Below the pieces are notes generated by a model, which was not told the origin of the DNA, searched no databases, and worked only from the letters and a program-made list of their open reading frames with translations. From assembly GCA_044892525.1 (NCBI GenBank), contig CM097885.1, forward strand, positions 16,990,001 to 17,054,000: DNA of 64,000 bases, written 5' to 3'. Below are positions 1,165 to 56,631 of the stretch, piece after piece. The position numbers were made by a program, and so were the translations under genes. Position 1 is the first letter of the stretch. Every line of letters begins with the position of its first letter. This stretch comes from Schmidtea polychroa (taxonomy: Eukaryota).

Positions 1165-1188
1165 TTTATAGTGTTAAAATTCTAATTC

Positions 1189-11237: not shown

Positions 11238-11273
<36 letters not shown>

Positions 11274-13700: not shown

Positions 13701-13795
13701 TTTGATGTTTAATAAATGTATCCTTTCCTTTGTTGTTGTGTTATTATTAATATTATTATTATTAATATTATTATTATTATTATTAATATTATTAT

Positions 13796-13826
<31 letters not shown>

Positions 13827-15044: not shown

Positions 15045-15480
15045 GAAGAAAATGATTTATGAGCAAAATGATTTATGACCAAAATGATTTATGACCAAAA
15101 TTATGATGAAAATGATTTATGAAGAAAATGACGAAAATTATGAATTTATGATTTATGAAGAAAATGACGAAAATTATGATTTATGACGAAAATTACGAAT
15201 TTATGATTTATAAAGAAAATTACGAATTTATGATTTATGATGAATTTATGATTTATGACAAATATAAGAATTTTTGAAGAAAATTACGAATTTATGATTT
15301 ATGAAGAAAATTACGAATTTATGATTTATGATGAATTTATGATTTATGACAAATATAAGAATTTATGATGAAAAAAAAAGATTTATGTTGAAAATAATGA
15401 AATTATGACGAAAATTATGAATTTATGATTATATGTTGAAAATTAATAGAAAATTATGATGAAAATTAGGAATTTATGAA
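15045..15480. repeat. Degenerate minisatellite (GAAAATTAYGAATTTATGATTTAT-type units)
   Basis: Visible tandem reiteration inside the putative large PolB intron. Confidence 0.85.
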
Positions 15481-15584
15481 GTAAATACTACGTTTCTGAA
15501 ATTAATATAAAAATATTTAAAAAGTGCTTATAAAACTATAGTTATAAAATAATTCTTGCAATGTGCATCTACAGTAGTTAAAAT

Positions 15585-15625
<41 letters not shown>

Positions 15626-15627
<2 letters not shown>

Positions 15628-15819
15628 TCTACAGTAAGCATGTAGCTACATAGTAGTCTACAGTAAGCATGTAGCTACATAGTAGTCTGCAGTGAGCATG
15701 CAGCTACTTCTTTTTAATATAATAATAGTATAAATAATAATCTGACCCTTCTACTATAGTCTACAGTGAGCATGTAGCTACATAGTAGTCTGCAGTGAGC
15801 ATGCAGCTACATCTCTTTA

Positions 15820-15899
<80 letters not shown>

Positions 15900-15978
15900 T
15901 AAATAATCTGACCCTTCTACTGTAGTCTACAGTGAGCATGTAGCTACATAGTAGTCTGCAGTGAGCATGCAGCTACTT
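15626..15978. repeat. ~30-bp palindrome-containing repeats (TCTRCAGTRAGCATGYAGCTAC) interspersed with (AAT)n
   Basis: About seven units; one further unit at ~20346-20369. Confidence 0.85.
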
Positions 15979-18900: not shown

Positions 18901-20373
18901 TCCGTATGGTGATTTTTCTTGGGTGAATGTTAACTTGAATGATGTTTTACTTGAATGTATGAACACGGATATTGATAACCTTCCATATGGGTATACTATG
19001 GAGGTTGATATCGATATTCCGGAATGTGTGCATGACTTTTTGAATGATTTTCCGCTTGCGCCGGAAAAGTTGTGCCCGCCTAATTCAAAAGTTGAGAAGC
19101 TTATGCTTACGCATTGGCCAAAGAGGAACTATGTTCTTCACTGGAGGCTTCTCAAATTGTATATAGAATTAGGTGCGGTTGTTGTAAATATTCATAGATG
19201 TATAAAGTATAAACAAGGACCTATCTTTAAATCCTACATAGACACCAACACCACTTTACGATCTCAGTCTACTAGCGAGATATATAGGGACTTGTTTAAA
19301 TTGTATAATAACAGTCTGTACGGTAAATCCGTTGAAAATCTGAAAAAACGAATGAATTTGAGGTTGTGTAATTCATCCGAAAAGATGATAGTATACTCCT
19401 CAAAGCCGACTTTCAGAAAGTCTATAAGAATCGATAACGATCTGATTGCGGCACATTTGGAAAAAGATTCAATTTGTTTAGACAGACCTAGCTACATCGG
19501 TCAAACAGTACTAGATCTGTCTAAACTGCGGATGTACCAGCTCCAATATATTGATTTGGAGAAGTACAGACGTCAATATAAATGTATTATAAATATTATT
19601 GCCGGTGATACCGACAGTTTCTTTTTGGAAATAAAAAATTTAAAATTAACAACTCTATTACCTCAGATGATCTCTGATAATTTATTGGATACGTCAAATT
19701 ACGATCCAACACACCCCTTGTATAATAGGAACCTTGACTCTGTCATCGGGAAGTTTAAAGATGAGAGCAAGGGATTAGGTTATTCCGAATGGGTTTTCTT
19801 ACGCCCTAAATGTTATAGTCTTTTAGGTAGTAAGGAAACGGTAAAAGCGAAGGGGGTTAAATTACCAGGGACATCAATAAATCATGAAACATATCTAAAT
19901 TGCTTTCATTCAAATCAGGTGATTTCTGTACCGCAGACTAGAATAGGTACTAGAAATCACCAACTTTTTACTTTTAAAAATTCGAAAATTGCCCTAAGTA
20001 ATAATGATGATAAGCGCGCGTGGCTAGGCAAAAACATAAGTTACGCATTTGGGCACAATTTAGGAGTTGACGAATTAAGTGAATATGATGAGGAATTCAG
20101 TGCAGCTCCAAGTCCCAGTTTCGACGACAGCGAATGGGATGAAGATCAATAAGACAACTGAAAATTGTATAGAAACTTTTATTTACAAAAACTTGTATTT
20201 ATAACTTGTATTATAACATGTATTATAACTTGTATTTATATATATACATATTGAATAAAAATTTGTAATCAGATTTTTTTTTTAAATTATTTCAAGTATT
20301 TGTTGTTTTATTATAATTTTTTATATTTAATAGTGATTTTTATATAGTCTGCAGTGAGCATGCAGCTATATCA

Positions 20374-20592
<219 letters not shown>

Positions 20593-20714
20593 TACTTATT
20601 ATTATTGTTATAGATTTGATCATTTTGAAAGCTCTATTTTGATTGGTTATCTCAATTTTTATAAATGTAAAAACAAAAGTAATTTAGTTATTGAGAAATT
20701 TGATGAGTCATAGG

Positions 20715-20880
20715 ATGAGTCATGGTCTTTGTTTCAATGACCTTGATGAGTAATATGTCTTTGTTTAAATTTGACCTTGAAAAAAAATGTACCTTTAGAC
20801 TTAGAATATTTTTGAAAATCTTACCGACGGAGGGGTGGAGGGGGGGGGGTACTGTGCTAGCGGTGCCCAATCCATCTACT
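20715..20880 (-). repeat. Right TIR of Polinton 2
   Basis: Reverse complement of 6537-6700. Confidence 0.95.
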
Positions 20881-23800
20881 AGCGACTTTTTCAAGAAAAT
20901 TGAGGCAAATAAAGAGTTGAGTCTTGCAGCAAGAGTCAACGATTGGATTTCATACAGCGAAACACAACTTCTCTTTTCGTTCAAATGACTGTACTGGTTT
21001 AATAAGAAATTTTCATTGGGACGTACAAAGACAGCTGTACTTATCAAAAAAGTTATCGATTTATATTTTGACAATATTATGAGAGATGCTCTAAATAAAC
21101 GACCATTCACATCAATCATGACGGACACATCAAATCATAAAAATATCAAGATGCTTCCTATTGTAATCCGTTTCTTTGATCCTCTAAAAGGTGTAAATCA
21201 CTGGAAAGCCTCAAATGCATCAATTCCCAATGACAAGTCTTCAAGAATATGCAATATCCTCATCGAAACTATAAGGAAAAATGATTTAAGTCACAAAATT
21301 ATTTCTTATTCTGCTGACAATACAAATTTGAATTTCGGTGGCATTACCAGAAATGAAACAAATAATATATGGAGAAAGCTACAAGTGGAATTAAAGCGAA
21401 AATTAAATGGAAATGGTTGTTTTGCTCATTTTATTCATAATGCTTCAAACGCTGGATGTGCAATATTAAAAGTTCTGAGTCGTTTAAAAGTTTGCGACGA
21501 AATGGAACATGCATTTAAACCGTTGGGGAATTATGGAAACACTCGATTTTTGTAACTTTATCCAGCTGTTCGTCGATTAATCGAATTATCTGATCCGTTG
21601 AAGGAATACTTCCAAACTCTGCAAAAATGTCTACCAGCCATTCAGCGATTCTTCAATAATAAAGCAGGCAAATTTTGGATTTTATTCATTTCCAATCAAC
21701 TTAAGAATTTCAACGACTCAATTAAAATCAATGAAAGTTCAAATATAACAGCAGTTGAGATTGCTAATCAGTTGAATATTCTTAAGGACAAATTGGCAAA
21801 CCGCCAAAATTTTTGTTTTTTACCCAGAGAATCGCTTTTGGAATTTCAAAATCTTGATGAACGTACCAAAAATGAAGCAAAAATTAAGGTCGCTGAGTTC
21901 TATGAGGTTATATTAAATTACTTGAGTATATGAGAAAATGCACTGGACGCAACACAGACTTTTAGGTGGATGATAATGTATAATTCTCCAACATGGGATG
22001 ACATTGAAAAATCAATTGATTATGCTACGGAAAAGTTGGGAAAACATTTTAATGAATTAGTTAATAGAGATTTGATGTTTGATGAGTTGTGCCTATTGAA
22101 GATTTATGCTGAAAATAACTTATTGAGTTGGCTGGATTCCAAACTATCTCCTGAAAATATATGGGTAAAAATTTTCCATTTATTTTCGTAAAAATTCAAC
22201 GTGTTTGGTCAACATGGAAAAACTGGCTGAATTTGCATTCTGTCTTTCTGGTACGTCTACTGAAGTTGAAAGAATTTTTTCTCTTATGAACAATGTATGG
22301 GATGATGATAAAAGTCGTTTAAATCCAAGCACTGTAGATGATATCCTCTCTATTCAATACAATGGCAAAATGAATTGTATTGAGTTTCACGAGCGTATAA
22401 GAAATGATCATGACTTCTTAAATAATGTAATTTTAAGTGAAAAATACTTAAAAAAATAAAGACTTAATAAACCGTTGTTAACTTTTGAAGTTTAAAATAT
22501 ACTATTTCATTATAACTGTTGCATTTTATCAGTTTATGTAAATTTCCGTTTTTTTTTCAAAAATCCCCTGGCCACCCTAGATATACATTGGTTATGATTA
22601 TATATAATTTACAATATTTAATAATTTCTTTATTTTAAGTAGTAAATCCGTTACATTAATTACCAAGCCTGTAATATTATTATACCCTTAGGTACATCGA
22701 CATAGCTTTCTTCAGAATCGACAACATAAATTCCTGAAAGATATTCATAAAAGTTATCAAAATTATATTAACCAATCAAAATCGGCATCCGATCGAAAAC
22801 TAATATCTTATGTTGTGGTATTTTAAAATAATTTTATCAAAATTGATTGAAAAACTTTTTATTTTTATATTAACTTCTTATTTCAAAAATGTCTGAAATA
22901 GGTCTATTTTAAATTAATTGGAAAATATAGAAACAATAACTGATTTAATATATTGAATAATGAAATAAATGATACACAATTATTCAATTGAGAAAAATAA
23001 TGATATAGAATTTTCTGATGAGCCTCAAAGTCAGAAAAAGTTCTTTTTTATATTTTCAAAAGTTACATAAATATTACTTTTGTTAATTTATTTTTTTCTG
23101 TAAAAATTATAATTATCTATTTTAGGTTTAGTATGTTTATAATAATTAAGTAGAATCATATTCTGATTAATGTTCTCTTATTACAACTTCACTCTACAAC
23201 ATGATCATGTTTTGTGAAGTTGCTTATAACTTGCATGTTATTAAGAAGCAAGGTTTGCTGTAAGCGGTCCGAATATCAATACGTAATGCTTCTAACGGCA
23301 CTCAATGTGTTCAAAAATATAACAATGAAAATATAACTACATTATTTTAAAAAATAAATGTATTTATTATTTTATTTCATCATATATAAATGTAAAACTT
23401 GAAAATTGTATGAAATTTCTAAAAAGCAATATACAAATCAGAAAATATAGGACCCAAAACAGAGAACCACTTTGCATTAGATATAAATGTAATACAAATT
23501 TCGACAATATTCTTGATAATTAACAACTAATATTTTACTTTATTAGACATTGCTAAACTATAATTTTTATTCTATTATGTAGATTAATGATTCCTAATAA
23601 TTCCTATATATGAGACCACTATCAAAACATGGTTTCTTTGCGCGTACCCATATAAAAATAACAGTAATATATTTTTTTATTATTTAGTGATGAGTATTAA
23701 TAGAATACTTATGTTATCAATAAATAATTTCTATTTGCCTGGTTTGAATAAAACAGACAAAAATTCATAAAATTTATTTTGTAAATTTAAAATATTTTAA

Positions 23801-23889
23801 TGATTTTCTGTCATTTCAGATATTTCCGAACTGCAAGCACATAACACAATTCCTTTCAACAAAGAAATTAGCAAACATCTTATTATTAC

Positions 23890-23947
<58 letters not shown>

Positions 23948-25012
23948 TATTATTATTATTATTATAGCTTTTAGATGTGGAGAAAATTTAATTATTCAAA
24001 GCATAGAAAATAATAAACATTTAACATTTAAAAATTATAAGAAATATAAGTAAATTAAATTCCATAATATTATTAAATTCTATAGTGTAATAAATATCAA
24101 AACTAACACTTGACATTTTCGCAGAAAATGCGACAGTAAATCAATACTTTTGGAAGAATTTCCCTAGTCCATTAGTGTGGATTTTCCAATTTTGTATTTT
24201 AAAGACTGTATTAAGCCTATTAAGTCCGCATATTCACATAATTCAAGAGATTTGATGTAATTAAAGAAACAATATAAAAGTAAACAAAAAACTCAAAAAA
24301 ATTATTCGACTTTTGATTTTTCTTATAATGCATCAAAATAACTGAAATACTAAGACAATAAAGTGATATAATGAATAAATGTTTGATCATTAAAAGACCA
24401 CTCAAACAACTGTTTTACGATATATTTTGGCAGGGTCACTGTTATCATCAGATAAGAAAGAAAAACTATAGATGCAATAGATATTCAAACAAATTATTTG
24501 CCTAATTTAATTACCCACAAATAAAATATCATTTATATCATATGAAAAAAGTCTGTAGAAATATCGTGTGCCTTACAAATTTTTTGATCTAGTCTTACAA
24601 ACAACTGTATTGCGTATTTCGTCTATGACAAGCAGAACTTTGGTTTATATTGATTTTGTTATAAACCAACCTTTTGTTGGGCTGAGTCGAAAACTTAATT
24701 GTTCAAAAGTAGGAAAATAAGAAAGTAGGACGTTAAAGAAAATAAAAATAAAATAAGCAAAATTAAGAATAAAATAGAATAAGATATAAGGAAAAAACAA
24801 TAATTAGGAAATAAGGATTAAAACAATAAATAAAAATAAGAAAAATTAAAATAGAACAATAAATTGACGAATAAATGATGTAAAATTTAATAAATAATAA
24901 GGAAATTAAGGAAATAAATAGAAAATATATTAAAAATAAAGGAAATAAGGAAAAATAACCAAAAAACAGGAAAAAGTAAATTAAATTGAAAAAATAAGCG
25001 GTACTCAATTCT

Positions 25013-25075
25013 GATTGGTCCGCATAAATGAAAAATTATTATATAAGCAGGCACCAAAATCATAAAAATCAGTGT
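25013..25075 (+). promoter_or_regulatory. Pol II promoter of the LTR-like element: inverted CCAAT, TATA and Inr
   Basis: GATTGG, then TATATAA at 25040 and TCAGT at 25069. The same order recurs at 29229-29290 and 52771-52820. Confidence 0.75.
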
Positions 25076-25533
25076 TAATTCAAAAACTTCATAGGTAAGT
25101 AAATTTTAAATATCATGCAGTGTTAATTCAAAAACTTCATAGGTAACGATCCAGAGACAGCCGCGACTCAAAATCAATTCAACGTTACATTTGCAATAGA
25201 AATCGACACCCGAAGAGTTACAGAATCCGAAATCAGCAGACTATTTTGTTTGAAAACCGAACATTATATTTTCGACTCAGCCTAATTCAATAGTAAGGAG
25301 ATTTTCTTTATGGTATTTATTTTAGAAGTTAATCGTACTTATGCATATTTGATGAATAATTAAAATCTTAATTTAAAGCAGTTTTCCTTTTCATTTGATC
25401 CCCCGTAATGATTTTAATAAAGTAAATGATTTAAATGTCTAAAAGTATTTACTAGTAACAAATGAATCATTGAGTAATTTTTATGATTAGTTTTTATGAA
25501 TTATCATTTTTCTGTGTTTAACTTAATGAGGAA

Positions 25534-25671
25534 CGTGGAGTTGAGATACTCCATGTCATGGTGTGAGGTGCCTTCAGGAGCTCAGCCGGTGGACATGGAG
25601 TTTTTCAATCACGCAGCTAGATTGGGCCGAAATGTGAAGGCTTCTTCACGGGTCCAATCGCTGAAGGTGAC
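25534..25671 (+). ncRNA. Structured cis-RNA element A, copy A (homolog at 29756-29892)
   Basis: Two hairpins with compensatory changes between copies, plus loop GCCTTCAG complementary to downstream CTGAAGGT. Confidence 0.65.
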
Positions 25672-27044
25672 TTAAAAAATATAGAAGAATGGAAACGAAG
25701 GAGAGTAGTGACATCTAATTAAATGAGATAGTCGTAGTAGTAGTGATCCACAGTGACTGAGCGAGTCTAAAATCTTCACATCTGCGATAGTTCTGTAGCT
25801 CTCGTGTTTTGGCAGTCTATTATCATCATCAGCTTTAGATTCCAGACAGTGTAATTTCGCTAATAGGGCAAGTATCATCTATTAACCAATTACTTTGATT
25901 TCGAAATAGCCACTCCCACTCAATTTCAACAATGAATCCAATTTAATAGTACTTAGCCTGACAGTAAGACAGTAGAATATAAGATCATCGAAAATTGAAA
26001 TTGAAAAATAAGTCAATACACGTGAAACATCTTTTATTTAAGTACAAAGGGAAAACAAATTTTCGAAATACCTGTATATGAGCCAATGTGTAAAACATTT
26101 TCTTCATTTAACTCCCAAAACAGTCGCCATCAACCAAGTAAGATAAGTAAAGACACCCAGAATGGTTTAATGAAACTTCCTCGAATGCGATATATCCAAT
26201 AATAGCGACGAGAGAGAATTTACACTTGAATTTAGACTAGTCGAGTGTAATCTAACACCAGTAAACAAATCCAGAATGCTATTCGTATTAAAATTCAGTA
26301 GAGCCACTATATTCGCCTGCGCGCACACACAAGTATTATGAGTCCAGTAGCAAATCCATATGGGATATCCATCAGCGATAATACAGTAAGTTATCAATCA
26401 TACTTGCGTGAGAAAATTTCCATACGTCACCCCGTTAGGTTTTTCCTGTGATTTGAATCAGCAGTAGGTAAATTCGCATTGAGCAATTACCCTGAGAGAC
26501 TCCACCCAGCACGCAGCATTCAGTTTCCAACTATAAGATAAAATCATCAGCCAGAGAGAAATTCACGCGGATTACTGATAACCGAAAGCGTGCAGTTGTA
26601 TAATTTAAGTCCAAAGTTTGGAACTTCTAAATTTAATCTGTATAACTAACGATTAACTAAACCCGCGGAATCTACCGAATTTTCATATTAGATAATTATC
26701 TTTTGTAAAGTAGTTAGTAATTTGATTTTGAGCTCTTGAATGTGATTTAACATTTTTAGGTAAAATTTAACTATTACTCATTTCACTTAATAGGTAGAAC
26801 TTCCATTTTTTTTTGTATTACCTTCCTTTGACAAAGTTATATTGTCGGTTGATATCTTTTAGTAAATAATTAATCTAAAGGGAATAAAGATCGATCTTCT
26901 AGGGAAAAGATCCTCTTGTCAGCCGACCCGGTTCCCTTTCTTGTCAGAATATCTGGGACATTCAACGAATAATGTGTCGGAACAATGATCTTATAAAATT
27001 AGTTTATCTCGTTTAGATTTATCTCTTCTTTATAGCCATCAGAT

Positions 27045-27792
27045 ATGCTACCAAACGCCAGACCGGCACTCAAACCCTGTTTATCTTGCTCAGATAAGAA
27101 TGTAGTGATCAAAGACTTACAAGCCCAGATAGGCCGTTATAAGAGAAAAATAGATGAGTTGGAGGGCACCTGGTTTAGCCCCACTCAAATGAAGGAAATC
27201 CAGAAGAGATTATATCGAAGTGAACATTGCCGTGACGCTCTAATCTCCGAGAGCCGGTCACAAAGAAGCTTAATAAAGGAGCAGTCCGAGGCCCTGCACA
27301 AGGTGTACCTGCAGGCGGCCACCACTAGAAAAATCGTAACTATCCCTATTCGCGAAGCCGATGAGCTTTTTCCGGCGCACCATGATACTTCTGCCAAATG
27401 GCCGTCTTCTTCCAAGAAATCTTGCCGACAGTGTGTAGAAACGGAACTCACCAAAAGACCCAGATCTCATCATCACGGGAACGAGCAGAGCACAAAGTGA
27501 AAGCACACCTACTGATACTGTGCCACAGAGGGATCAATCAACGTCGAAACCGAAGCGTAAGCAGTTATCGCGGGCAGAGCGTAAGAGACGACAGCGCGAA
27601 CGAGCAAACATCCAGCAAAGCACCACAGTGATGGAACCCCCAACTCCCCGAAACGTCAACCCAGCGGTGGTAGATCTAACTACCGGGATCTCCGCACGGA
27701 TTATCTCGGCTGCTGGCGTAGTATGGGAGGAATATGCCTCCGAATTTTTCGACATCGACGAATTATTACGGGATACCGAGTGGGAAAAATGA
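27045..27792 (+). pseudogene. LTR-encoded unknown protein, copy A (frameshifted near 27450-27500)
   Basis: KPCLSCSDKN...GTWFSP...SEHCRD, then KPKRKQLSRAERKRRQRER...FDIDELLRDTEWEK in a second frame. Splice acceptor TTTATAG just before the ATG. Confidence 0.8.
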
Positions 27793-28056
27793 GTAACTCC
27801 AGCAGAAAGCTCAGTGACTATCACCTCTATTATTAGCATCATATGTGATTCTCTGTCATACCATCCATCTGTACATATGGATCTTCTGTTGTTTTGTGTT
27901 TTGAGAATGAAATACATTTATTCCTGTTCCATTTATTTATTTTCGTTAGTGAGGGTTAGGCATAAAATTATATACGGATTGTTTGAAGTTTGATGAGTGT
28001 CAGCCAATTTGCATTCGATCTACCGGTAATGAGAGATTTGGATAATACGAAACGAC

Positions 28057-28200
28057 GTAAGACCTTCTATCGGCCGTCTAGTGTGGGAAGTCGAGACCTC
28101 AGTAAGGAGTAGTTTTAAGGCAGAAGCTCACCTGCTTACTGGCGTCTCGCCGGCATAGTGCAGTACCAACGTGAAGCAGTTCACAGGCACTATGTTGGAA
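28057..28200 (+). ncRNA. Structured cis-RNA element B, copy A (homologs at 32401-32545, 48345-48490, 56387-56525)
   Basis: Strongly conserved non-coding block; stems covary across four copies. Confidence 0.65.
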
Positions 28201-28920
28201 TGCGAGTTATGCGGGGTCCTACTCAGTGTTGGAAAGAGGAGAGGATTTTTGGTAGAGTGGGCAATCAACCCTTAGACTAGCCACAAATGAAATAGCCAAC
28301 CGAGTAAGCCACCCCAGCACTTTTATATATGACAAAAATATATTCTTATGCGGCTGGGAAAAACATAAAATAATAAACTGAAAAAAATAATAATAGATCC
28401 GTATTTTGTACACAAAAGTTACATTAGACTATAAGAAAATTTAAATCGTGTGTTAGAAATAATTCAAGAGAAAATGTTGTCTTTAAAGGGCCAGGAGAGT
28501 TGAAGCACTTACTCTTGGAATAAAACACAGGACATATTTTTTTAAAGGTTCTTAAAAATGGTGTTTTAATTTTATGAAGTGAAACAATTTACATTGCATT
28601 TATTGAGAAATCAGTAGTCATTTTTTAATAAATACAATGTCAATTGAAAAGAAATCAGAGGTGAAAATCGAAAGAAGTTTTTACGAAACAATTTAGTTCA
28701 AGCAAATTTGAAAAGGTTGAAAATAGATTCTCACAACATTTGTCAAAATTGGTATTCGGTTGCATGACTAATGATGATAAATTCAAGTCGATAATCATAT
28801 TAAAAAACGATTCTGAAGGACAATTTTATAACAACAATTGTAGAAAAGACATATCCTAAAGGAATTTAGGTTTATTGTATTTTTAATATAATTTAATAGA
28901 AAAAAATGAATTTATGCTAC

Positions 28921-31900
28921 TGTTGGGCTGAGTCGAAAACATAGATTGGAGATTAGGACAAACAAGATGTTAAATAAAATAAAAATAAAGCAAACAAATT
29001 TAAAAATAAATTAGAATCAAAATACAAAAGAAACAATAATTAAAAAATAAGAGTTAAAACAAAGAATAAAAAATAAGAAAATTAAGATAAGAAAAATAAA
29101 ATAACGTAAAATTCAGTAAATAATGAGGAATTAAAGAAATAAACAAAAAATATAATAAAAATAAGAAGAAATAACCAAAAAACAGAAAAAGTAAATTAAA
29201 TTAGAAAAACTAAGCGGTACTCAATTCTGATTGGTCCGCACACATGAAAAATTAATATATAAGTAAGCACCAAAATCATTAAAATCATCGTTAATTCAAA
29301 AAATTCTATAGGTAAGCAAATTTCGAAAGTATCAACCACCGTTAATTCAAAAAATTCTATAGGTAAATCCAGAAACCGCAGCGACTCACAATCAACCGAA
29401 ATTAGCCAAAGCATAATTAGTAATAGGAATCAACATTCAAGGAACCATCAGGATTTGAAATCGAACAGACTATCTTCAAAGACGAACAATTCATTTTCGA
29501 GTTAGCCCTCAAACCGATAACGATAGTAAGGAGATCTTTTATTTTTGAAAAGTTAATAGTAATCATGGATATTTGTTAAATAATTAAAATTTTGGTTTAA
29601 TGCGATTTTTTCTTCATTTGATCCCTTGTAATAATTTTAACTAGGTTAATGATTTAAATGGCTAAATGTAATTACTAACAATAAATGAGTTATTTCAAAG
29701 TTTTTATGATTTGTTTTATGAGCTGATATCTTATGATTTTAATTCTTATGAGAAACGTGGTGTTGAGACATTTCATGTCATGGTGTGAGGGGCCTTCGGG
29801 AGCTCAGCCGGTGGACATGAAGCTTTTCAATCACGCAGTTGATTCGGGCCGTAATGTGGGGGCTTCCCCACGGGTCCGTCACTGAAGGTGACCTAAACTC
29901 AGTTAGAATAGCAGCATATAGGGTGCATAATAGATTCTAAATCAAAAGAAAAGTAAGATTTACGATTTCACAGTGATTGAGGGAGTTACCATCTTTGTAC
30001 CTACAATGACTCTACCACATTAAGCATCATTCTTCGAGAAATTCATGCTATCACCATCTGTAAATCGGAATCTCTAATGTTACATTAATAATTCGATTAA
30101 CACTCATCTCTAACGAAATTATCCAACGTTGAGCTCTCCTTTTATCCTTCGGAAAATGAACCGATTCGAATTTTCACCTTTACATCTTGATGATCATATG
30201 ATAGAATTCAATAACAACATTTACGTAAAAATGGAAAAAATAATACTATATGTATATCAATATTTTATTTAAGTACATTCATAAATTAATTTCCGACTAC
30301 CTGTGTAAACGTTCTCTATGTGATCCATTCCGAATGACCATAGCTGAAATGAAATTGATAGACATCTAGAGAGTTTAGAAATTCCATCGTTAAGTATATC
30401 CAGCTCTAGAGAAATTACGACTTGTACTAACAAATTCCAACATTGCAAGTTAGATGAGAACTGACAGACGATGAATACGGCACCTAAAATATTCTCTAAT
30501 ACCACATGTGAAGTCAAGTAGAAATTCCACCGAATAGCACACGTGCATGTATATATTGTAACTGCGATTAGCGATATCCATATGTGAGTATGCGCGAGAA
30601 ATAGCATAATCAATGAGCAACCATTCACAGTAGGGAATTTCACCATGTGTCACACCCGATAGAATTTTTCATCTTTGTGAATAGTAACGGGTGAGCGTAT
30701 TAGATAACAGCTACCATGAGGTGCGACACTCAGGTTGTTGATTCTCAGATTTTTGTTTTGGATAAAAATCGTTTGTGTCGTTATCGAGATAAATTGAATA
30801 ATCAATAGACGATTACCGAGGTATGAAAATCCTTAAAGTCCACTTATTAGAAAATTGTAAATTAAGTGTTATAAACGACAATAGAAATTTTAATTAATTA
30901 TGATAGATAATAATCGAAATTTTAAACCAAATGCTGTAAATAATAATTAAACTTAGACAGATTTACCCATATAACTCCTTAGGCATTCACGTATGAACAT
31001 CATCAAGTGGGAAAAGGGAAAGTTTGGGGGAAGTAACTAGCGCTGTATATTTTAATTTTTGATCTAAAACATGATTTAGCAATTTCAAGAGAGATTAAGG
31101 AGTTAATAAATTCACTATTGTGGAATTTTCATACTTAATTTGTATTCGTCAAGACAATGATATAGGCGATTAATTAATATTTTGTAAATAAGGTACAAAG
31201 TGATAGCGATCAACCGTCTGGGGGGCGGAATTTTCCTCATCTGCTTGTCCTGTTTTCTTCCCTTGCCGAATATCCGACAGTGAATAAACAACTGCATCCG
31301 ATCAACGATTTTGTAAATGTAGTATATTCTGGTTATCATAGTTTCTTCTTTACAGCTATCCAACATGCTACCGAATGCCAAACCTGTACTACGCCCTTGC
31401 TTCTCCTGTTCTGACAAAAATTCTATTATCAAGGATTTGCAGTCCCAGATCGGTCGATACAAAAGGAAAATCGACGAACTGGAAGGCATATGGTTCAGCC
31501 CAGTGCAAATGAAAGAGGTACAGAAGAAGTTGTACCGCAGTGAACATTGTCGTGACGCTCTAATCTCTGAGAGCCGTTCCCAACGGAGTCTAATAAAAGA
31601 GCAATCGGAAGCTCTGCACAAAGTGTACCTGCAGGCGACGACTACTCGAAAGATCGTCAGTATCCCCATCCATGAAGCGGACAACATCTTCCCAGTGCAT
31701 CACGATACCTCTTCCAAGTCATCGTCTCCCTTCAAGAAGTCCTGTCGAGAGTGTGTAGAGACCGAGCTCTCACCTAAGCACCCGGACATCATCTTCACCG
31801 GAACCAGTAAGGCGCCACCCACCATTGCATCTACATCTGCAGCAACCCAGAATAGTCAGACGGCATCGAAACCTAAGCGACGGCAACTATCGAGGGCCGA

Positions 31901-32665
31901 ACGCAAAAAAAACAGCGAGAACGAGCGACCGCCAAACAGCACGAACAATCGGCGGGCAACCCGATTAACGTCAACAATTCCCCTTCAGTGATCGATCTGA
32001 CAACCGGGATCCCAGGGCGAATCATCTCCGCTGCTGGCGTAACCTGGGAAGAAAATGCCTTAGAATTTTTCAATTTGGACGAATTGTTAGCCGACACCGA
32101 GTGGGAAAAATGAGAATCCACGGTGGAGTGCTCTCAGCGATCGCAAATTTTCGGACTACGTTATCAATGTTTTCTTTCTTTTTCCTTTTCTCATTGAAGT
32201 ACATTTGTGGCGTATAAATTATCTGTGTTTGGTGTCATAAAATTGAAATAAACCATTTTTCCGTTTTTATATATTTTCCTGTGCGAGGATGTTCGGTATA
32301 GACTGTTTGTGAATATAGGTGAAAGCTTTCAAGGTTCAATGAGCGTTAACCAATTGCATCTAATACAGAGATAGTGAGGGTATGAATAATATGAATAGGC
32401 GTAAGTCCTTCTATCGGCAGTCAAGAGAAGGAAGTCGAGGCCTCAGTAAGGAGTAGTCCTAAGGCAGGGGCTCACCTGCTTACTGGCGTCTCGCCGGCAT
32501 GGTACATTTCCAACGTGAAGCAATTCACGGGTACTATGTTGGAGTATAGGTTGTGCAGGGTTCTGCTCGGAGTTGACAAAGTGATAGCTAACATATATGA
32601 AATGAACAATCATCTCTTAGACGAAAAGTTAAAATAGTTGGAGTCAACCGAGTAGCGCCCCAGCA
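28921..32665 (+). mobile_element. Giant solo-LTR-like element, copy B (3745 bp)
   Basis: TGTTGGG...CCCAGCA termini; TSD CTAC at 28917-28920 and 32666-32669. Confidence 0.92.
31365..32113 (+). pseudogene. LTR-encoded unknown protein, copy B (frameshift in an A-run near 31910)
   Basis: Homologous to copies A, C and D. The conserved tail RIISAAGVTWEE...LDELLADTEWEK is in another frame, ending at 32113. Confidence 0.8.
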
Positions 32666-35094
32666 CTACCTATGATTTAAATATCAAAAATTTGAACATT
32701 CAAACTACAGAGGATTAATAATATTGAATAAATTATTTCTAACTGTATTTTATCTTACTACACAAAGTAAATAAGAGGGGGGTTGGATCCATGCGCTAGA
32801 CGATGGAACACGCGAATAGGTGGTGGGTGAGGTAACCAACATAGAGCACCCAATACAAGCGGCAGAACTCTTGGCGCTTTCGGTACCAGTCAGATAGTGA
32901 GCTAGGATGAGATTAAAAGTTTCAGCTGATGGCAAACTCTGGATCCTGTGTCGAAACTCGTTCCGAGTATATATGATACATTACCCATGTCTGCCACTGT
33001 GTCAGTGTGCGTTGGGCACTACTTTAGCCGATAATGCCTTATAATGAATAAATTGCATGTATTGAATTAAGACCCAATTGATGACTCGCTAAAACTGACA
33101 GGTCAAATCGAACTCCTCTCACCAATAATTTAGCAATAACTAATTGACATATTGGTGCACTGGTTGCACCAGTTATAGGTAATACAGAATCGAGATTTCT
33201 CTGTTTAATGTGTACATTAACTCCTCAAATATGATATAAATTATTTGGTTGGGTATCAAGATTTGTATAAAATACCAAAAGTTAGAACAGAATGGAAAAT
33301 AGTTCAGCAATTCAAAACAGTATTACCGAACGAAAGTCCCCATTAACAAACTTTACGGATTCGGATTACGGATTTTTCGCTTACATTACTTATTTTTTAC
33401 ATATGAATTATATATTTTAAGTTTTATTGCTCAATAAAATTGCATATGTATATGTATATCAGAACTTTACAATTTTTAACATTTTTCAGTTTTAAACTAA
33501 ATATAGGTTTTTATTGCATCTTATACGATTTAAAGATATTGCCTAAAAAATCAAAGGATCAGCCGTGTTCTTAGACCTTATTTGGTTGCGTGCAATTCAA
33601 GTGATGTGAAAACGAAAGGTTTACCGAAAAAGATGGAAAATAAGCTTTCTAATATGATCAACGTTTTGCAGGAAGGTTTACAAAATTAAAGTATTTCAAT
33701 TTGTGTTATAAATAGAACAAAATCAAAGTAGAAAATAATTCAATCGAGACTATTCAATTCGAAAATATTACTAGCCCTAAACAAAAATCATTAAGACGTG
33801 CGCAACTTTATCAGAATATAATACACAGCGGTAGGCCTAGACCACATACTAACCACATGGCAACAGCAGTTAAGGATGCAAATGCAAAACTATTTACTCA
33901 TCTAATATCTATATTTGAAATGCCTGATCTTAAAAAATGGCCATTAATATTAAGACGCTTTGGATCGATGGTGAAAGACAGCTGAATAATTTGACCAAAC
34001 ACAAATATTTAACGTTCCAATTAATGATTTTAGAATTTTTATTGATAAAAATAGAGCTACCAACTCGTGTTTATGTTTACTTACAAAATGTCCTAAATAA
34101 TTAAATACAGAAAATACCACAAGCAAAAAAATAAAACCAAACTCCTTTAAATAAATTATTAAATTTTTTTGTCTTTTTTTTATGGGTTAGTAAAGCAAAA
34201 CCGAATTTTTCCCATACAAAAATATGTTCCAAAAATGTATAGATATTCCGCTTTACCGAGTATTAAGTTTATCTCAACAAGTATAAAAAGAGACAATAAA
34301 TTCTTATTTTAGTGAAAACAGTACATCAATGAATTTGCTGTGATTTTATGTCTTAGATTTATACATTGCAGAAAAAATTGATAATTATAGCGACTTATGG
34401 GGATTTTTATTCCAATAAATTATTTCGTCAACATGGGAATTATGAATATTGAACCTCCACAATCAAGTAAAAGAACAAAAAGAATAATCAAAACTATTGG
34501 TGTTATGGAAGTTGAGCGTGGCTTCAGTGCAATGGGAAATTTATCGAAACTAGTCTTCATAAGAATTTAGGGGAAACCTGAAACTGCTTTTAATCTTCTA
34601 GCTTATATAAGAACATGTTTGAGGAAGCATAATGACATACAAATTAAAATACCATTCATATAAAACAGGGATGGCAAACAAGTCGATCGCGGAGCTATTT
34701 CTGATCGATCTCAAAGTATTTGAAAGTTATGCCATTTCAATAGTAAAAACATAACATTAAAAACTTCAAATTTTTACACATAAATTCATTATTTATAATC
34801 GGAAAATAAATGAAAATTTAACAGAATTCCCGCTAAATTTGAATCTCGTTAGCTTTTTTGTTTTTATCTATTTCTGTTTTTGCAGCATATTGAAACGAAG
34901 TGGAAAAATAAATAAAATAATTTTTACTGGCATTTAATTTAAATTTCAATCTAAGTAGGTTTTGTTGAAAAATATAACACATTTGAATTTGTTTGCTATT
35001 TCCATACAGTTTAAACTTCCACCGACAGTAAGTCGGTCATTAAGTGTTAATAAGTAATAAAATAAATTCTATAGTTATTTGGATCACGTATGTT

Positions 35095-45616: not shown

Positions 45617-48610
45617 AAAGTAACAGCCATATAGTGATTGAAGGAGTAGATGTATTAATCAAATGAAATGAAGAGTATTTGAGAGTTCACACAGTGATTG
45701 AGGGTGTCACACTATTAAATCGTCGGACCGTCTTTGCTAAGCTTGGAGTATCTCTATTATCTGGAAAAATCCAAACAATGGTTTATTGAATTCGTCTGAA
45801 AATTAGTGTCATCTTATAGGATATATTATCTGAGGGCATAATGATTGTGGCATAATTGCGAAAGGTACGATAGTCTATGCAAATGAGCAAATTCCAATCT
45901 TGGTATAGCATAGCGAGTAGTCGAATGTCAGCATTTTTTTTGAGTTGTTTTCCAGAGATCGTCGAGATATTCGGTAAAATCCCAGTCGATGTTGATGACG
46001 ATGATGAAATTCCATAATGAAAGCTGGCAACAGCATAGATCGGAAGTTTCCGTAACTAATCATACGGTGAGAATCATGCGACATATGGAATAACGAAATA
46101 TCTGTGAAACTAACATCAATTAGATAAAATCACAATATTCAGTTTCGATAATAGATCGACAGCATCAAAGTTCACGTTAGATAAGACAAAGGAGAATGCA
46201 TGCAGCACTAGTAAATCCACTCATGCACTAGGCAACTTTCGCCATGACTGTCACAAGCACACACACCGATTCATAACGAGCTAATCGACATACGAGTATA
46301 CCAGTAGCCAAGGCATAGCACTAATGATTTATTGGTAGATGAGTTCACACACACCACAAACATAGCGACCGTTATCGGCAAAGATCAAGCCGCTAAAAAT
46401 TCCTTCACTCACAATTTCATGTTATCTTGAGCAGGTAAAGCCCAACGTGAGTGAGAACAAACCTGATAGATTGGATCAGTGAACTTTAGATCCAAAACAC
46501 TAGTCGGATGATTTTTGGTTACTCCAATATTTAATGCCTTTAGTCGAGTCAAATTTTCATCTAACCCGTCTGGTTGATTGAATCGTTGTTTTTCGTTGCA
46601 TTAAATTAATAATAGTAATCGGCTAACTTATAATGTAATATTAAATTAATAGTTTAATGTAAATATATCTCGCTGATCTAACCATTTTACTAAACCAACT
46701 TTAACTTAATCTCAATCGTTTAATAATTCTATTTGGGTTTATCTCATTTACTTCATAATTTCGTTAAATGGGCGTTTTAAGTAACCATATAAATTTCAAA
46801 TCAATGATGATAAGCAATCCACCAAAATTTCGATTAGATGTTATAACGTTTTTTATTGCCAGAACATTATTGTCTTATTACTATTAGATTACTATTATTA
46901 ATATTATTACACATTATAAACCCTCAAACAACCAAGTATAAAAACTGTCAAGTGGGGAAAAGGGAGAAGAGTCTTGGGGGTAGCTAGCGCCGATATCGCG
47001 TAATTATCAATCTAAAAATGAAATCTAGTATTTGTAGTAAATTCTTAGAGTTAGTAAATGCACTCAATTGAAAGAATAAAAATCTCCCAGTTAATTCATT
47101 TGCATTCAAGTCACCTGTATTCAGCATTAGTTAAATTTTGTAAATCATGTATAGGGTAGAAACGAGTCGACATCTTAACAATTCCTTTACCATCTAATCT
47201 GTTCTTCTTTTTCTTTTGAATATCCAAGGTAGTAACTGAGTAGTGGCACCAAATGTATGACATTTCGAATATCATATCTTAATCTCACCTTTATAGCTAG
47301 CCAACATGATGCCAATTGCCAAGCCCGTTTTACGTCCCTGCTTCTCCTGCTCGGACAAAAATGCAATTATCAAGGACCTGCAGACCCAGATTGGGCGATA
47401 TAAAAGGAAAATAGATGAGTTGGAGGGCACATGGTTTAGCCCCACTCAAATGAAAGAAATACAGAAGAAGCTATACCGTAGCGAACACTGCCGGGACGCT
47501 CTAATCTCTTAGAGCCGCTCACAAAGGAACTTGATAAAAAAACAATCCGAAGCGCTACACAAAGTGTATCTGCAGGCGTCAACCACGCGAAAGATAGTCA
47601 GTATCCCCATCAATGAGGCCGACAATCTCTTTCCGGCACACCACGACACCTCTTCTAAGTCGTCGCCTCTTTCAAGAAGTCCTGCAGAGAGTGCGTAGAG
47701 ACCCAGCTCTCGCCCAAACAACCAGACATTATTTTCGTTGGAACGAGCAAAGCGCCACCTGCGATCGCTTCTACATCCACAGTACCTCCAACTAATCCAA
47801 CGACATCGAAGCCAAAGCGTCGGCAATTATCAAGAGCCGAACGTAAAAGGAAGCAGCGGGAACGAATAACCGCCAAACAGAATACACAACCGACGGAACT
47901 TCTAAGTGAAGTCAGCGCCCATTCGGTAGCAATAGGTCCGACATCAGGAATCTCAGGGCGAATTATCTCCGCCGCTGGAGTAACTTGGGAGGAAAACGCC
48001 TCCGAGTTTTTCGATTTAGATGAGTTACTAGCGGATATGGAGTGGGAGAAATAAGAATGCTCCCGTGAATTGACCCTATCGTCCGGAACATTGTCGAACC
48101 GAGTTTATCGTGTCTTTCTTTCCTTGTTTTTCTCTCATCCCGATATCTCTGTTGTATGTAAATCATCGGTGTTTTATATGTTTAATGTTACAATAAACAA
48201 TTTTATGTCTTTACATCATTTTCGTTTGTGAGGAATTCAGTATGACTGTAATAAATAGAGTTGAGTGTTCTCGAAATTCAAGGAGTATCAGTCAGTTTGC
48301 ACATAAACCAGAGGTAGTGGAGTGGATTGATAATTCGAATAGACGTAAGTCCTTCTATCGGCAGTCAAGAGATGGAAGTCGAGGCCTCAGTAAGGAGTAG
48401 TCCTAAGGTAAGGGCTCACCTGCTTACTGGCGCCTCGCCGGCATAGTACAGTTCCAACGTGGAGGAATTCACGGGTACTATGTTGGAGTATAGGTTATGT
48501 GTGGGCTCTGCTCGGGATTGACAAAGTAATGACGAGCATAATCGGAATGGGCATTCATCTCCTAGGCCAAAAGTTGAACTAATGGTGGTCAACCGAGTAG
48601 TGCCCCAGCA
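45617..48610 (+). mobile_element. Giant solo-LTR-like element, copy C (5'-truncated)
   Basis: Homology to copy B starts just after structure A; carries the ORF and structure B; ends CCCCAGCA. Confidence 0.85.
47306..48054 (+). pseudogene. LTR-encoded unknown protein, copy C (TAG at 47510, frameshift near 47665)
   Basis: RPCFSCSDKN...GTWFSP...; KPKRRQLSRAERKRKQRER...FDLDELLADMEWEK. Confidence 0.8.
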
Positions 48611-52272: not shown

Positions 52273-55200
52273 TGTTGGGCTAAGTTTTGAAGTAGAGAAA
52301 AACTGGGTTAAATCGGGAAACGAGCCGCGAAAAATATAAACGAAATATAATAAAAATAAATCCCCATCAAACCTCAATAATAAATAAGGAAACAATAAAA
52401 TACCTATAAAAAGAAATAAGAATAAGTGATAAATAAATAAAGCCCTTAAGAATTAGAAATAGGACATAAGAGAAATGAGTTAAAGCACAATAAATAAAGT
52501 AAAAATAGAATAAGCAAAAAAGTAAGAGAAAATAAACGAGAAATTAAAGCAATAAATAAAAAATAAAAATATCTTTAAGTTTAATTAAAACAAAAATTGT
52601 ATTATGATAAAGTAGCAGTGAACCCGCAGAAAAAATAGGAGAAAAATAAGAAAAATAGGAAAATAAATAAAATAATAATAAGAAATAAGTTAAGTTATTA
52701 AAAGCTAATATATTATAATGAAAACATAAAATAATAATAAATATTAAAAATTACAACCTAACTAAGTCCTGATTGGACGAAAAATAGTATATAAGAAACG
52801 CTAAAAATCAGTAGAGTACCACTTTAACCAACAACTCTACAGGTAAAATTTGTAAAACTTATCACGACCACTTTAACCAACAACTCTACAGGTTTCAAGA
52901 TTTTATTCACAAACTACTACAGAGGACTAATCCAAAGAAGACTAATTTGAATTGAGGAAGAAACATACAGCGAACTATTTACAGCATTATACAGGAAAAC
53001 CTTAGCCGATTTAACCCAGTTATTTAATCTCAAGGTATGGTAGGATATTTTTAGGTTTGATTTTATGATAGATATGATGGAATTTAATAAATATTTATAA
53101 TTGATATTAAATTTTGTAAATAACAAGGAAAATTTGTTCAATAAATTTATTTAAAAACAGAACCTGCCTTTCTTCAAGGAGCCGACGACTGTACCTTCTG
53201 ATGATTTCAAGTATGATGCCAAATGGAGAGAGTAGCCCCGAGGAATATTATGATATGTAGCCAAGAGATGTTGCGGATATTGGATCAGGAGCAAGCGATA
53301 ATAGTGGATACGATGCCAATACTGTCAGGGAATATTGGGTTGGAAAATGAGAAAGCATCATACTTGGAACTCAGACGATATGGTCGCCGGTAATTTGATT
53401 CATTTACTTGATTATTATTTGTTCCATTTTTATTATTTATATCTGAAATTTGTTTTTAAATTGCTGAATGCGAAAGAGTCGACTGGTCCCTCGTGATCGT
53501 CCGAGAATGGCGGCAGAGATGATTGCCTTCTTGGGTGTGTTATGAGGGGTGTAGAGGCTCAGTAGGTTAGGATAACAGGCTGAAAGATGGAATTTCTTCA
53601 CCGAGCTCGCATCGTTCTTAGTAAGTTCCATAGCTTCAATAAGTCACATCGATACTTCTAATAATAGCGGAGGAGATTTAAGTTGAGAGCCGAAGACAGT
53701 TCGGAGTTGAGATTGACAATTTCATCAACGTATTAAGAATCCACATAGTTCGGCGAAATTTCTTCATAACGGTCAACCCGTCAGTCGGGATAGTGAACGA
53801 GAATGTTGTCGACGAAGCTTGGAGTGTAAATCCAGTAAATCTCGTAGAGTATTGTTTTCCTCGGTATACTAGTAGAATCTGAACCGTCGATATGTTAGCG
53901 ATGACACCCGTCGACGAATGTACTTTTAAGTTAAGTGATTAGCTTCGAATCGCTGATAAACATCGTCTTCCCTGAAAAGAATGTAAATAAGTAGGAGAGG
54001 TTATCAGATTACTCACGGAAAAATGACAGAAATCGCTGACAGATTTATCAATTGATCACTGACTGAATTGAGGAACCACGATAGGAGTTATCAGTGACTT
54101 GAGAAATGAATTGCCGGCAGATGATAACTGATCGAATTGAATGACCAACGAAACCAGATAATACCGATAATAAATTTCCACGAGGAATAATCTAATTGAC
54201 GCGTGGGTAGACCTTGTCTTGTACTGGCTGCGTAATGATCGAGGCAGATTAAAAATTCTAGCTTAGTTATTGCTCATCGGATTACTATGTACAATTCCAG
54301 GGTGATACTTGTGAACACTTAGTGATAATTCCAATATATTATGTAACTGTACACACCTACACACTCCATCGTGAATAGTCTCCCAGTAGGGTAGCAGAGT
54401 ACTCTTGGCATTGGAATTTGGCCGTGATGTCACAATTACATAGTAACCTACTCGTAATTCCCTGAGTTGGTAGGCTGGTGTGTATGAACAACAGAGCAGA
54501 TCGTCTCCACTGCGATTTAATACGACGTCGAATTTTCTCCACTATCACATAGAAATAGACACACATGAAAGCTCAAGGTGGAGATACTCCAACAATGCAT
54601 ACCGACTCAGTTAATAAATATAAGAAAATGCACACATCTACAGGTAGGCGTCACTAGGGCGACAGAAGTAGCGCGATTTTTAAAAGAATTTTTGGAATTT
54701 AAATTATAATATAATTAGCTAATAGTATATATTTAAAGTCCTTTATGTAAATTCGTAATCACAATGCATCATAAGGAGAGATAAATTTTTCCTGCGTTCT
54801 AGCAATACGGAGTAGGTACAAATTGATAAACTGAAATCCCCAACAATCGGATGCTATTCTTTTCCATTAATTACGAACGTAAATATGTTTGACTATAGCA
54901 GCCGGCTAAAATGCAACGAGTATGAGTTATCCGACCCGAGGGTAAAGATAGAGTTTTCATCGAACAAGTTAAAAGCGAGGATTCCCCGTTTTCTTCTCTC
55001 CCTCATCTTGAATCAATAAATCAATCGGAAGGTTGTTTCCTAAATGAGTGAATGAGGAGTGCTGAATTGTGTGAAAACAAGTTGTTTTATTGTATGCTGT
55101 GGCGTGGTATGATGAGTGAAATCTTTGAGTTTAGTGTCTCGATAGAATTTGGAACTAGATATATTTTAACCGTTAAAACGGATTACTAGAGAAAACTTAG

Positions 55201-56631
55201 CTGAGACATTAAAAACATGAAATTTATGAATCAAAACACTTCGTGAAAATTACAGAATTATAACTAATGAATTCTTGTACTGGATACCTTAATAATTATC
55301 GCAATTCGGTTTGAACCATGATTAATTTTCTAGATGACAACACCATCCAATAACGCCCAAGAACTTCGTCCGTGTTTCTCTTGCGCTGACAAGAACTCGG
55401 ACATCTCTCAACTTCATTTATATATAGGGGCCCTCAAGAAGAGGATAGATCTTTATGAAGGAACGTGGTTCTCCCCGCCACAGATGAAGGAGGAAAAAGC
55501 TAAGATCCTCAGGTTAGAACATTGTAGGGACAGCCTACTAGAAGAAAGCCGATGCCAAAGGCTCACAATAAAAGCACAATCAGAAGCCCTCCATAAGGTC
55601 TACACGGAGGCAGAAATAGCAAAGCGGGTACGCGAATATCCCGTATTGGATGGATCGAATGTCTTTCCTCTCCATCACCAGTCATCTACAACTCCCACCT
55701 CAGCTTGTCGAGGGCACGGTTCCCATCTACCGCCCATCCCAGCCCCAGTGCTGTCAGGATACTTACCTATGAAAGGCGGTCCATCTGACCCAATTCTGGC
55801 CCCGATCCTAGGGGCACCCACAGTATCTACTGCTGTTGGAGGAAATCCGCCATCACGCAAACGCAAACACCCAACTAGGGCCGAGAAGACTAAGAAACGA
55901 AGAAATGCAATGAAGGCACTCGAGGCTTCTTTGTTCGCAGCGCAGACGACAATAGCAGAGATATCCACCACTCATACGATTCCCTCGAAAGAAGTTTTCC
56001 GTATCATTCCAGCTAACGGCATCAAGTTTATCTCGGATTGTAGATTGCCGGTAGACATCGACGAGTTAATTGCCGACGGAGAAAACTTCAACTAAAACGG
56101 TTCGCGAGTGATCCTGAATGTATTTCGAGTCGTGAATTGACTGATAAACTTCGTTAATATTGTGCATCCTAACCGTCCATATGATATTGTATTAATAAGT
56201 GTGATGATGTTTGTTTATTTTCATTTCGGTATTAATATATTTTGTCTATTTAGTTCTGTTTTATAAAGATTTTCATATGTTTGGTTTTTTGAGAATAAAA
56301 TGGTTCAGTATTACGGAAGGAAAGCTAGTAGGCTAACGGTCGTTCCCTTGGACCAGGATCGAACCAAGACTGAAACATGAATAAGGGTAAGTCCTTCTAA
56401 GGCACCAGTGAACCTGAACCGCGAGCGGGCTATCAGTAGTCCTAAAATAGGGGCTCACCTGTTAGTCAGCTCCGACCCGTATGGGCACTACCAACGTGGA
56501 ACATCACCACGGGCTCATGCGTGGGAAGATGTAAATGATCATTTGGCGTATGCATGGGAGGTGTCTGAGCTAACCAATGCGGTCGGTATGATAATGATGG
56601 TGTGAGTTTTCTTCTCCCTCATATGCCAACA
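52273..56631 (+). mobile_element. Giant solo-LTR-like element, copy D (4359 bp, divergent subfamily)
   Basis: TGTTGG...CCAACA termini; TSD CAAC at 52269-52272 and 56632-56635; same internal layout as copies A and B. Confidence 0.92.
55334..56095 (+). CDS. LTR-encoded unknown protein, intact copy (253 aa)
   Basis: RPCFSCADKN, GTWFSP, EHCRD, QSEALHKVY, RKRKHPTRAEKTKKRR, RII.A.G, DIDELIAD. Acceptor TTTTCTAG abuts the ATG. Confidence 0.85.
   Translation: MTTPSNNAQELRPCFSCADKNSDISQLHLYIGALKKRIDLYEGTWFSPPQMKEEKAKILRLEHCRDSLLEESRCQRLTIKAQSEALHKVYTEAEIAKRVREYPVLDGSNVFPLHHQSSTTPTSACRGHGSHLPPIPAPVLSGYLPMKGGPSDPILAPILGAPTVSTAVGGNPPSRKRKHPTRAEKTKKRRNAMKALEASLFAAQTTIAEISTTHTIPSKEVFRIIPANGIKFISDCRLPVDIDELIADGENFN

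Follow-up and report, generated by a model that had tools for sequence, protein, structure and literature searches.

A covarying RNA structure within the long terminal repeats of Burro-like giant Gypsy elements in Schmidtea polychroa: a candidate signal for RNA packaging

The window, i.e. the whole 64,000-nucleotide stretch of Schmidtea polychroa DNA analysed here, contains four copies (A to D) of a long terminal repeat (LTR), each bearing a conserved RNA fold hereafter referred to as structure B (Table 1). The four window copies of the fold thus lie in solo LTRs (A, B and D) or in a partial one (C). From 5' to 3', the LTR presents a TATA box with an early donor, a second fold referred to as structure A, a gene encoded by the LTR itself and then structure B. 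The TATA box region of LTR A is the predicted start of R, and the functions of the TATA box and of the early donor are likewise putative.

Table 1. Features of the window, in window coordinates
Feature	Position	Strand	Remarks
Protein-primed DNA polymerase B with zinc finger	1189-5613	-	Polinton/adintovirus-like
rve integrase with chromodomain	10946-11917		Polinton/adintovirus-like
Second polymerase-like remnant	16520-20152		Polinton/adintovirus-like
Solo LTR copy A	24675..28319	+	3,645 bp; TG...CA ends; 4-bp target duplication; ends and flanks read directly
TATA box and early splice-donor-like site, LTR A	25040..25100	+	LTR positions 366 and 421
Structure A, LTR A	25533..25662	+	Separate two-hairpin fold; folding z -5.43
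LTR-encoded gene, copy A	27045..27792	+	Broken; frame ends at 27500; acceptor-like AG immediately 5'
Poly(A)-signal-like hexamer, LTR A	27911..27916	+	AATACA variant; U-rich surroundings; 146 nt 5' of donor; putative function
Structure B domain I, LTR A	28054..28078	+	3-bp covarying helix around donor-like GUAAG and CCUUCUA
Structure B domain II, LTR A	28092..28149	+	Long hairpin with near-invariant core
Structure B domain III, LTR A	28154..28194	+	Stem, bulge and terminal hairpin
Solo LTR copy B	28921..32665	+	3,745 bp; TG...CA ends; 4-bp target duplication
Structure B, LTR B	32398-32538	+	Same LTR: AATAAA at 32247 and a broken LTR gene
LTR copy C, 3' part	47275..48610	+	5' part not recognisable
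Structure B, LTR C	48342-48482	+
Solo LTR copy D	52273..56631	+	4,359 bp; TG...CA ends; 4-bp target duplication
LTR gene, copy D	55334-56095	+	253 aa
Structure B, LTR D	56384-56520	+

Other components of the window include Polinton/adintovirus-like genes at positions 610-20152 and further open frames at 40714-41601, 50340-50930 and 61753-62670 (a weak exonuclease-like match, an integrase zinc-binding remnant and an unassigned 305-aa frame, respectively). LTR copies A and B are repeated in duplicate 36.2 kb upstream with 100% identity and the duplicates add no evidence. The duplicated block covers at least 18.4 kb (window positions 16233-34635 and the stretch 36.2 kb upstream) at 100% identity, and represents either a very recent tandem duplication or an assembly artefact.

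Judged by size and gene content, the carriers of structure B are Burro-like giant Gypsy elements of about 30 kb with an env-like gene and a tRNA-Pro primer-binding site. Same-strand pairs of D-type LTRs lie 22-34 kb apart, and elements read whole measure 30.6 kb with LTRs of 4,241 bp and 29.8 kb with LTRs of 3,859 bp. A Pfam scan of 12 frames of one element, the D-type element of 30.6 kb, identified RING, Gag, Bcl-2-like, viral fusion glycoprotein, protease, reverse transcriptase, RNase H, integrase, ankyrin and RING-MATH domains; the Bcl-2-like match is weak (E 0.025) and the main frame is broken by stops. Planarian Burro/GYPSM1 elements are gypsy-like, about 30 kb long and present in thousands of copies (PMC6431247). 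The elements studied here resemble them in size and copy number, and in a domain order of Gag, Bcl-2-like, env-like fusion protein between gag and pol, protease, reverse transcriptase, RNase H and integrase, ankyrin, RING and MATH (PMC6431247). The published account, in the parts consulted, covers the proteins (PMC6431247), and the RNA structure of the LTR, the LTR gene, the primer site and the Gag-only derivative are features seen here.

In all lineages, a short spacer separates the upstream LTR from an 18-nt site that complements the 18 nt at the 3' end of a genome-encoded tRNA-Pro(TGG). Such junctions of LTR and primer site number 630 genome-wide against none in a reversed control, and they identify the forward strand of the window as the sense strand. 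The spacer measures 7 nt in all the lineages seen, the usual distance between an LTR end and a primer site being 1-3 nt, and the tRNA-Pro(TGG) genes form a tandem array with a 475-bp period at G000:C1:130.9 Mb, with 2,190 pattern matches genome-wide. In three elements from different lineages, the 45 nt upstream of the 3' LTR lack a polypurine tract and contain instead a short inverted repeat, which is conserved, and a GC-rich sequence with partial complementarity to the primer site; plus-strand priming of these elements may be unusual. Near-identical D-type LTRs precede two leaders that are only about 70% alike, suggesting LTR exchange between sub-families.

The core pattern of structure B has 4,361 matches in the genome against 2 for the control pattern. 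To assess its presence without bias, 90 of the 630 junctions were taken in genome order and selected by the primer site alone. The donor motif occurs with at most two mismatches in 84 of these 90 LTRs (exactly in 83), 231-265 nt 5' of the LTR end, and the exact 9-nt core in 81, the motif or the region being lost in six. About 50 of the 90 belong, by assignment from the LTR end, to a short-LTR type termed E. The one E element read whole has LTRs of 1,658 bp, no LTR gene and only a 760-aa Gag-like frame, and the LTR gene is absent within 1.5 kb in all seven E-type loci among the 30 loci examined. Structure B thus survives the loss of the LTR gene, pol and env, a behaviour expected of a signal needed in cis. 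The donor-like motif is present in both LTRs of three elements read whole. The E type, an abundant derivative with Gag only, measures about 15.4 kb (G000:C1:5987501-6007500, minus strand); with its 1.66-kb LTRs and a block of tandem repeats, it resembles the TR-GAG elements of plants (PMC4350172). Its LTR also holds a 130-nt segment common to the D-type LTRs in reverse orientation.

All the stems of structure B proposed in an earlier note, which was made from the window sequence alone, were found at their listed places, with the arms of the outer stem at 28092/28144 (A), 32436/32488 (B) and 48380/48432 (C), those of the inner stem at 28111/28123 (A) with 3' arms at 32467 (B) and 56450 (D), and those of the second domain at 28154/28187 (A), 32498/32531 (B), 48442/48475 (C) and 56479/56513 (D). 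The donor-like motif described as preceding the fold is present in all four window copies (starting at 28057, 32401, 48345 and 56387) and lies inside a third covarying domain, domain I, so that structure B of copy A starts at 28054, 3 nt before its donor. The helix of domain I is weak by folding energy yet covaries, and is paired in 86% of cases. Domain II consists of a long stem, a G.G mismatch, two pairs, a U opposite CAC, a 6-bp inner stem and a variable loop, and domain III of an 8-bp stem, an 8-nt bulge ending in CCAA and a 5-bp hairpin. A search of the window with the model of this second hairpin domain recovered exactly the four copies (45.9-53.3 bits), the next match scoring 11.7 bits. 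The outermost stem is clear in the A/B/C lineage but does not reach significance across lineages (best pair E 0.85), and the CCAAC segment, earlier taken as invariant, is nearly but not fully so, being conserved in 43-46 of 46 copies per position. The terminal loops are variable and the internal loops and bulges nearly fixed, which suggests a ligand that reads unpaired bases. The CCAAC bulge of domain III is also similar to the end of the LTR, and might pair with the start of U3.

For the analysis of covariation, 165 distinct copies were reduced to 46 representatives with less than 92% identity (median identity 60%), leaving out 11 loci with deletions, insertions or no donor part. Since 23 of the 46 copies were fetched by the two core blocks, the invariance of these blocks is partly built in and was judged from the 90 primer-site loci instead. 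In the sequence-only alignment of the 46 copies, 94.8% of 1,263 stem cells are paired against 34-43% in slid registers, and 20 of 28 pairs are changed on both sides, values reached in none of 500 shuffles; domain III alone is 94.2% paired, with 10 of its 13 pairs changed on both sides. Significance was assessed with a tree-aware null, in which the observed number of changes was placed on the tree with fixed-anchor columns in 150 simulations, an approximation of R-scape. Of the 8,128 column pairs, six are significant at E<0.05, and every one is a pair of the structure B model: the long stem of domain II supplies two and its inner stem one, domain III supplies another two, and the sixth links the donor base -1 to a partner about 20 nt downstream (E 0.007). 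The three pairs of domain II and the two of domain III are significant at E<0.01. In some lineages CUUCUA can be paired with the linker that follows domain I, an arrangement that yielded no significant pair under the tree-aware null.

The strand of the fold is apparent from the helix cells, because G-U cells far outnumber A-C cells (132 against 16, or 86 against 16 without the invariant column), as expected for sense RNA. The folding z-scores of the four window copies are -2.98, -4.33, -4.95 and -2.08 on the sense strand and -0.97, -1.34, -2.68 and +0.85 on the opposite strand. The motif is also more conserved than its flanks, both between A and B (0.87 against 0.54-0.64) and between A and D (0.59 against 0.38-0.48). 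A hidden coding frame was rejected as the cause of the conservation, the best frame being open in only 13 of 46 copies and the spacings shifting by non-multiples of three. The earlier note had named a coding explanation and insignificant covariation as the findings that would overturn its claim; no kept frame was found and the covariation is significant, and both objections consequently fail. Its claim of an RNA structure covarying across four copies is borne out by the 46 diverged copies and the sense-strand folding, and structure B is confirmed as an RNA-level fold on the sense strand, under selection.

Under another reading, the conservation of the blocks reflects sites in the DNA or a splice donor on the antisense strand, and the stems are incidental; in its favour, the most invariant 9 nt read as a consensus donor on the minus strand and hold an E-box. 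This reading is nevertheless very unlikely in view of the significant covariation in four helices, the asymmetry of G-U and A-C cells in favour of the sense strand, and the equally conserved partner block that pairs with the 9-nt core in the sense fold. Ribozymes occur in other retroelements, and a compact fold with near-invariant unpaired bases might represent a self-cleaving ribozyme. That possibility is slighter still, as no Rfam match was obtained over structure B in the window and 10 diverged loci (E up to 5), no pseudoknot covaries among the 8,128 pairs, and cleavage at this place would sever the primer site from R.

The earlier note had further proposed that structures A and B share a sub-motif, AAYGUG...CACGGG, and the pentamer GCUCA, and hence a common ligand. 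The sub-motif is literally present, occurring in 20 of 20 distinct structure A copies of the A/B lineage, but the domain III model scores at most 9.3 bits on structure A (E 3.7-4.9), i.e. at chance level. The suggestion of a common ligand is not supported, in view of this score and of the absence of the sub-motif from the matching region of D-type LTRs and of the E LTR read whole. The kinship of the two structures was rejected on the same best score, and GCUCA occurs in the primer site as well. In structure A, a run of 10 nt (25581-25590 and 29803-29812) matches the primer-binding site exactly, with 12-13 of 18 positions matching overall. A second tRNA-Pro site in structure A of the A/B/F-type LTRs, weaker in D, is possible, and two primer sites have been described for Drosophila gypsy (PMC1635307).

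The position of structure B within the transcript was examined from the surrounding motifs. One of the hexamers AATAAA, ATTAAA, AATACA and AATATA lies 120-190 nt 5' of the structure B donor in 27 of 29 long LTRs without the E-type repeat, against 0-6 in the other intervals compared, a count made after removal of duplicates with 5 of 60 loci unmatched and with the AATACA and AATATA variants chosen after looking; AATAAA alone occurs at -190..-121 in 13 of the 29, and none of 14 other intervals has it in more than 3. In E-type LTRs, a hexamer is found at that distance in 1 of 18, and the candidate lies instead 540-690 nt upstream. The primer site lies about 250 nt downstream, and structure B ends more than 100 nt before it. 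Because structure B is 3' of every candidate poly(A) signal, it is inferred to occupy U5, the R/U5 border being drawn from motifs alone; the earlier assignment to U5 is thereby supported by the upstream hexamer and the downstream primer site.

The proximity of hexamer and donor raises the question of whether structure B is mainly a switch between polyadenylation and splicing. Occupation of the domain I donor by U1 would then keep the poly(A) signal some 150 nt before it silent in the 5' LTR, with the fold controlling the access of U1. The HIV-1 poly(A) signal is followed by a donor at 195 nt, and foamy viruses, which carry a donor within an RNA structure in both LTRs, control U1 access through RNA structure (PMC3694450); the spacing seen here, about 150 nt and within 132-170 nt in 27 of the 29 long LTRs, is like the former and the structured donor in both LTRs like the latter. 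The hexamer count and the paired and covarying donor base -1 are in line with such a role. The placement differs from both, the HIV-1 donor being outside the LTR and the foamy donor upstream of the signal, whereas here the donor is downstream of the signal and inside both LTRs (PMC3694450). With a donor in both LTRs, the asymmetry between 5' and 3' is missing and the 3' LTR would need a further switch. Moreover, the E-type LTRs retain structure B without a hexamer at that distance, base -1 is C in 27 of the 46 copies, which is poor for U1, domains II and III are left unexplained and two of the four hexamers were picked after looking. We consider this reading rather doubtful as the main role. 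Among the matches listed for contigs of presumed RNA runs against the D-type LTR and leader, no GT-AG joint from the structure B donor was found; one contig, from a presumed RNA run that is possibly DNA, crosses the donor site without a joint, and another presumed-RNA contig ends in poly(A) some 320 nt into the leader, which may reflect mispriming; none of these observations was counted as evidence.

The gene inside the LTR offers a candidate ligand. In its open relatives the encoded protein has about 250 aa, with a cluster of basic residues and an acidic tail, and an acceptor-like AG lies just 5' of the ATG; most of the 150 D-type copies listed have an open frame of 253 aa, and the K/R-rich cluster is kept in 18 of 18 diverged open frames. 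No homologs were found among 579 candidates of similar length, Pfam gave no useful match, and Atlas matches were under 0.9. Structure B could accordingly be a response element of the Rex/Rev type, to which the basic LTR protein would bind, blocking the adjoining donor and exporting the unspliced RNA. Rex-2 of HTLV-2 acts at an R/U5 element, RxRE-2, which is intact only on unspliced RNA (PMC3434621, PMC3504254). Structure B would be like RxRE-2 and the U5 cis-acting repressive sequence of HTLV in its R/U5 place, its confinement to unspliced RNA and its adjoining donor (PMC3434621, PMC3504254), all of which are here predicted from motifs, and the elements share with HTLV a small basic protein encoded by the element and, with HTLV-1, a tRNA-Pro primer (PMC11251516). 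Many internal genes have acceptor-like AG sites, so that the unspliced RNA would need protection; in all 11 of 11 loci that carry the RING gene, the first internal one, such an AG stands 2 nt 5' of its ATG. Rex-2 reportedly requires an intact splice donor and a specific structure (Black et al. 1991).

Several features weigh against this interpretation. No leucine-rich export signal is clear by eye in the LTR protein, and its acidic tail could equally be an activation domain; the protein lacks a family or homolog, and it is only 36-40% identical between lineages in which the loops of structure B are nearly the same. Structure A, which differs by lineage, represents an alternative target. Unlike the HTLV system, the protein gene is inside the LTR, homology to RxRE-2 is absent, and the host and the element class are far apart. 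A role as an export element of this kind appears unlikely on balance, and is still the main rival to the packaging role considered below, the anatomy of structure B fitting both equally well.

An aid to the start of reverse transcription, by pairing with the tRNA-Pro primer or by holding reverse transcriptase near the primer site, appears about as doubtful as a poly(A)/splicing switch. The fixed distance to the primer site, the retention of structure B in the Gag-only type and the GCUCA in common with the primer site are compatible with it, and extra tRNA contacts are known for HIV-1 and Ty elements. However, the duplex energies of four conserved segments with the tRNA are no better than those with shuffled tRNA (11-61% of 300 shuffles are as good), the bases before GCUCA follow their stem partner and not the tRNA, and structure B ends well short of the primer site.

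The best single explanation, although held tentatively and at somewhat less than even confidence, is that Gag recognises structure B on the unspliced genomic RNA and thereby selects that RNA for packaging. Transcription would start near the LTR TATA box and the RNA would end at the poly(A) signal 5' of structure B, so that structure B would be present only once, at the 5' end of the read-through RNA. If the early donor or the structure B donor were spliced to the AG sites that precede the internal genes, structure B would be lost along with the primer site, and the structure would thus mark only RNA that is neither cut at the LTR signal nor spliced. The near-invariant unpaired bases (the U/CAC loop, the G.G mismatch and the CCAA bulge) may be read by a protein supplied in trans, and the donor of domain I would bind U1 when its short helix is open, and may also weaken the poly(A) signal that precedes it in the 5' LTR. 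As the mark is kept even by a Gag-only derivative, selection for packaging would be its simplest use. The earlier note had suggested a packaging or dimerisation signal or a protein-binding site: packaging or protein binding is plausible, given the near-invariant bases in loops and bulges and the retention of the fold in LTRs without the LTR gene, but dimerisation through a palindromic loop is not supported, 6-nt palindromes being found in 1, 0 and 5 of the 46 copies in the three loops. The packaging, export, polyadenylation and priming roles of structure B are not mutually exclusive.

In retroviruses, Gag recognises packaging signals that are structured elements at the 5' end and are linked to the unspliced state of the RNA (PMC5035971, PMC8096270). 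Structure B is like the psi of RSV and MMTV in being a structured 5' element with conserved loops beside a splice donor and the primer site (PMC5035971, PMC8096270) and in its predicted restriction to unspliced RNA, which for structure B is read from motifs. The known psi cores lie mostly downstream of the primer site, as in RSV with psi at nt 126-395 and the primer site at 102-119 (PMC5035971), whereas structure B lies upstream of it, inside the LTR and 231-265 nt before the LTR end, and has neither a palindromic dimerisation loop nor sequence likeness to psi.

No Rfam family matches structure B, and four stretches in metagenomes carry its core, none with domains I and III, a number close to chance by a rough estimate. 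No earlier description was found in the literature searched, which did not extend to subscription papers and Repbase reports, and the extended data of Grohme et al. 2018, the primary Burro description, may cover the anatomy of the LTR. Structured leader signals are expected in LTR retroelements; what is unusual is that structure B lies inside a very long LTR upstream of the primer site, incorporates a donor into its fold and is linked to an LTR gene. A more far-reaching scenario, which we regard as improbable, would be that of a giant invertebrate Gypsy element with a Rex/RxRE-like switch wholly inside its LTR and independent of the deltaretroviruses. The basic LTR protein would bind the invariant loops of structure B, a structure-gated U1 site would decide between polyadenylation, splicing and export or packaging, and Gag-only derivatives would exploit the system in trans.

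Burro-like elements are a major repeat class of this genome and their cis signals have been little described. Structure B provides a compact and well-supported RNA model with thousands of natural variants, for which the Gag-only type represents a natural deletion control; it thereby opens a complex invertebrate retroelement to tests of how packaging, export and polyadenylation are controlled. As a plain leader signal, structure B would be of an expected kind, though unusually placed; if the LTR protein is its ligand, regulation in the style of Rev and Rex would have arisen outside the vertebrate retroviruses.
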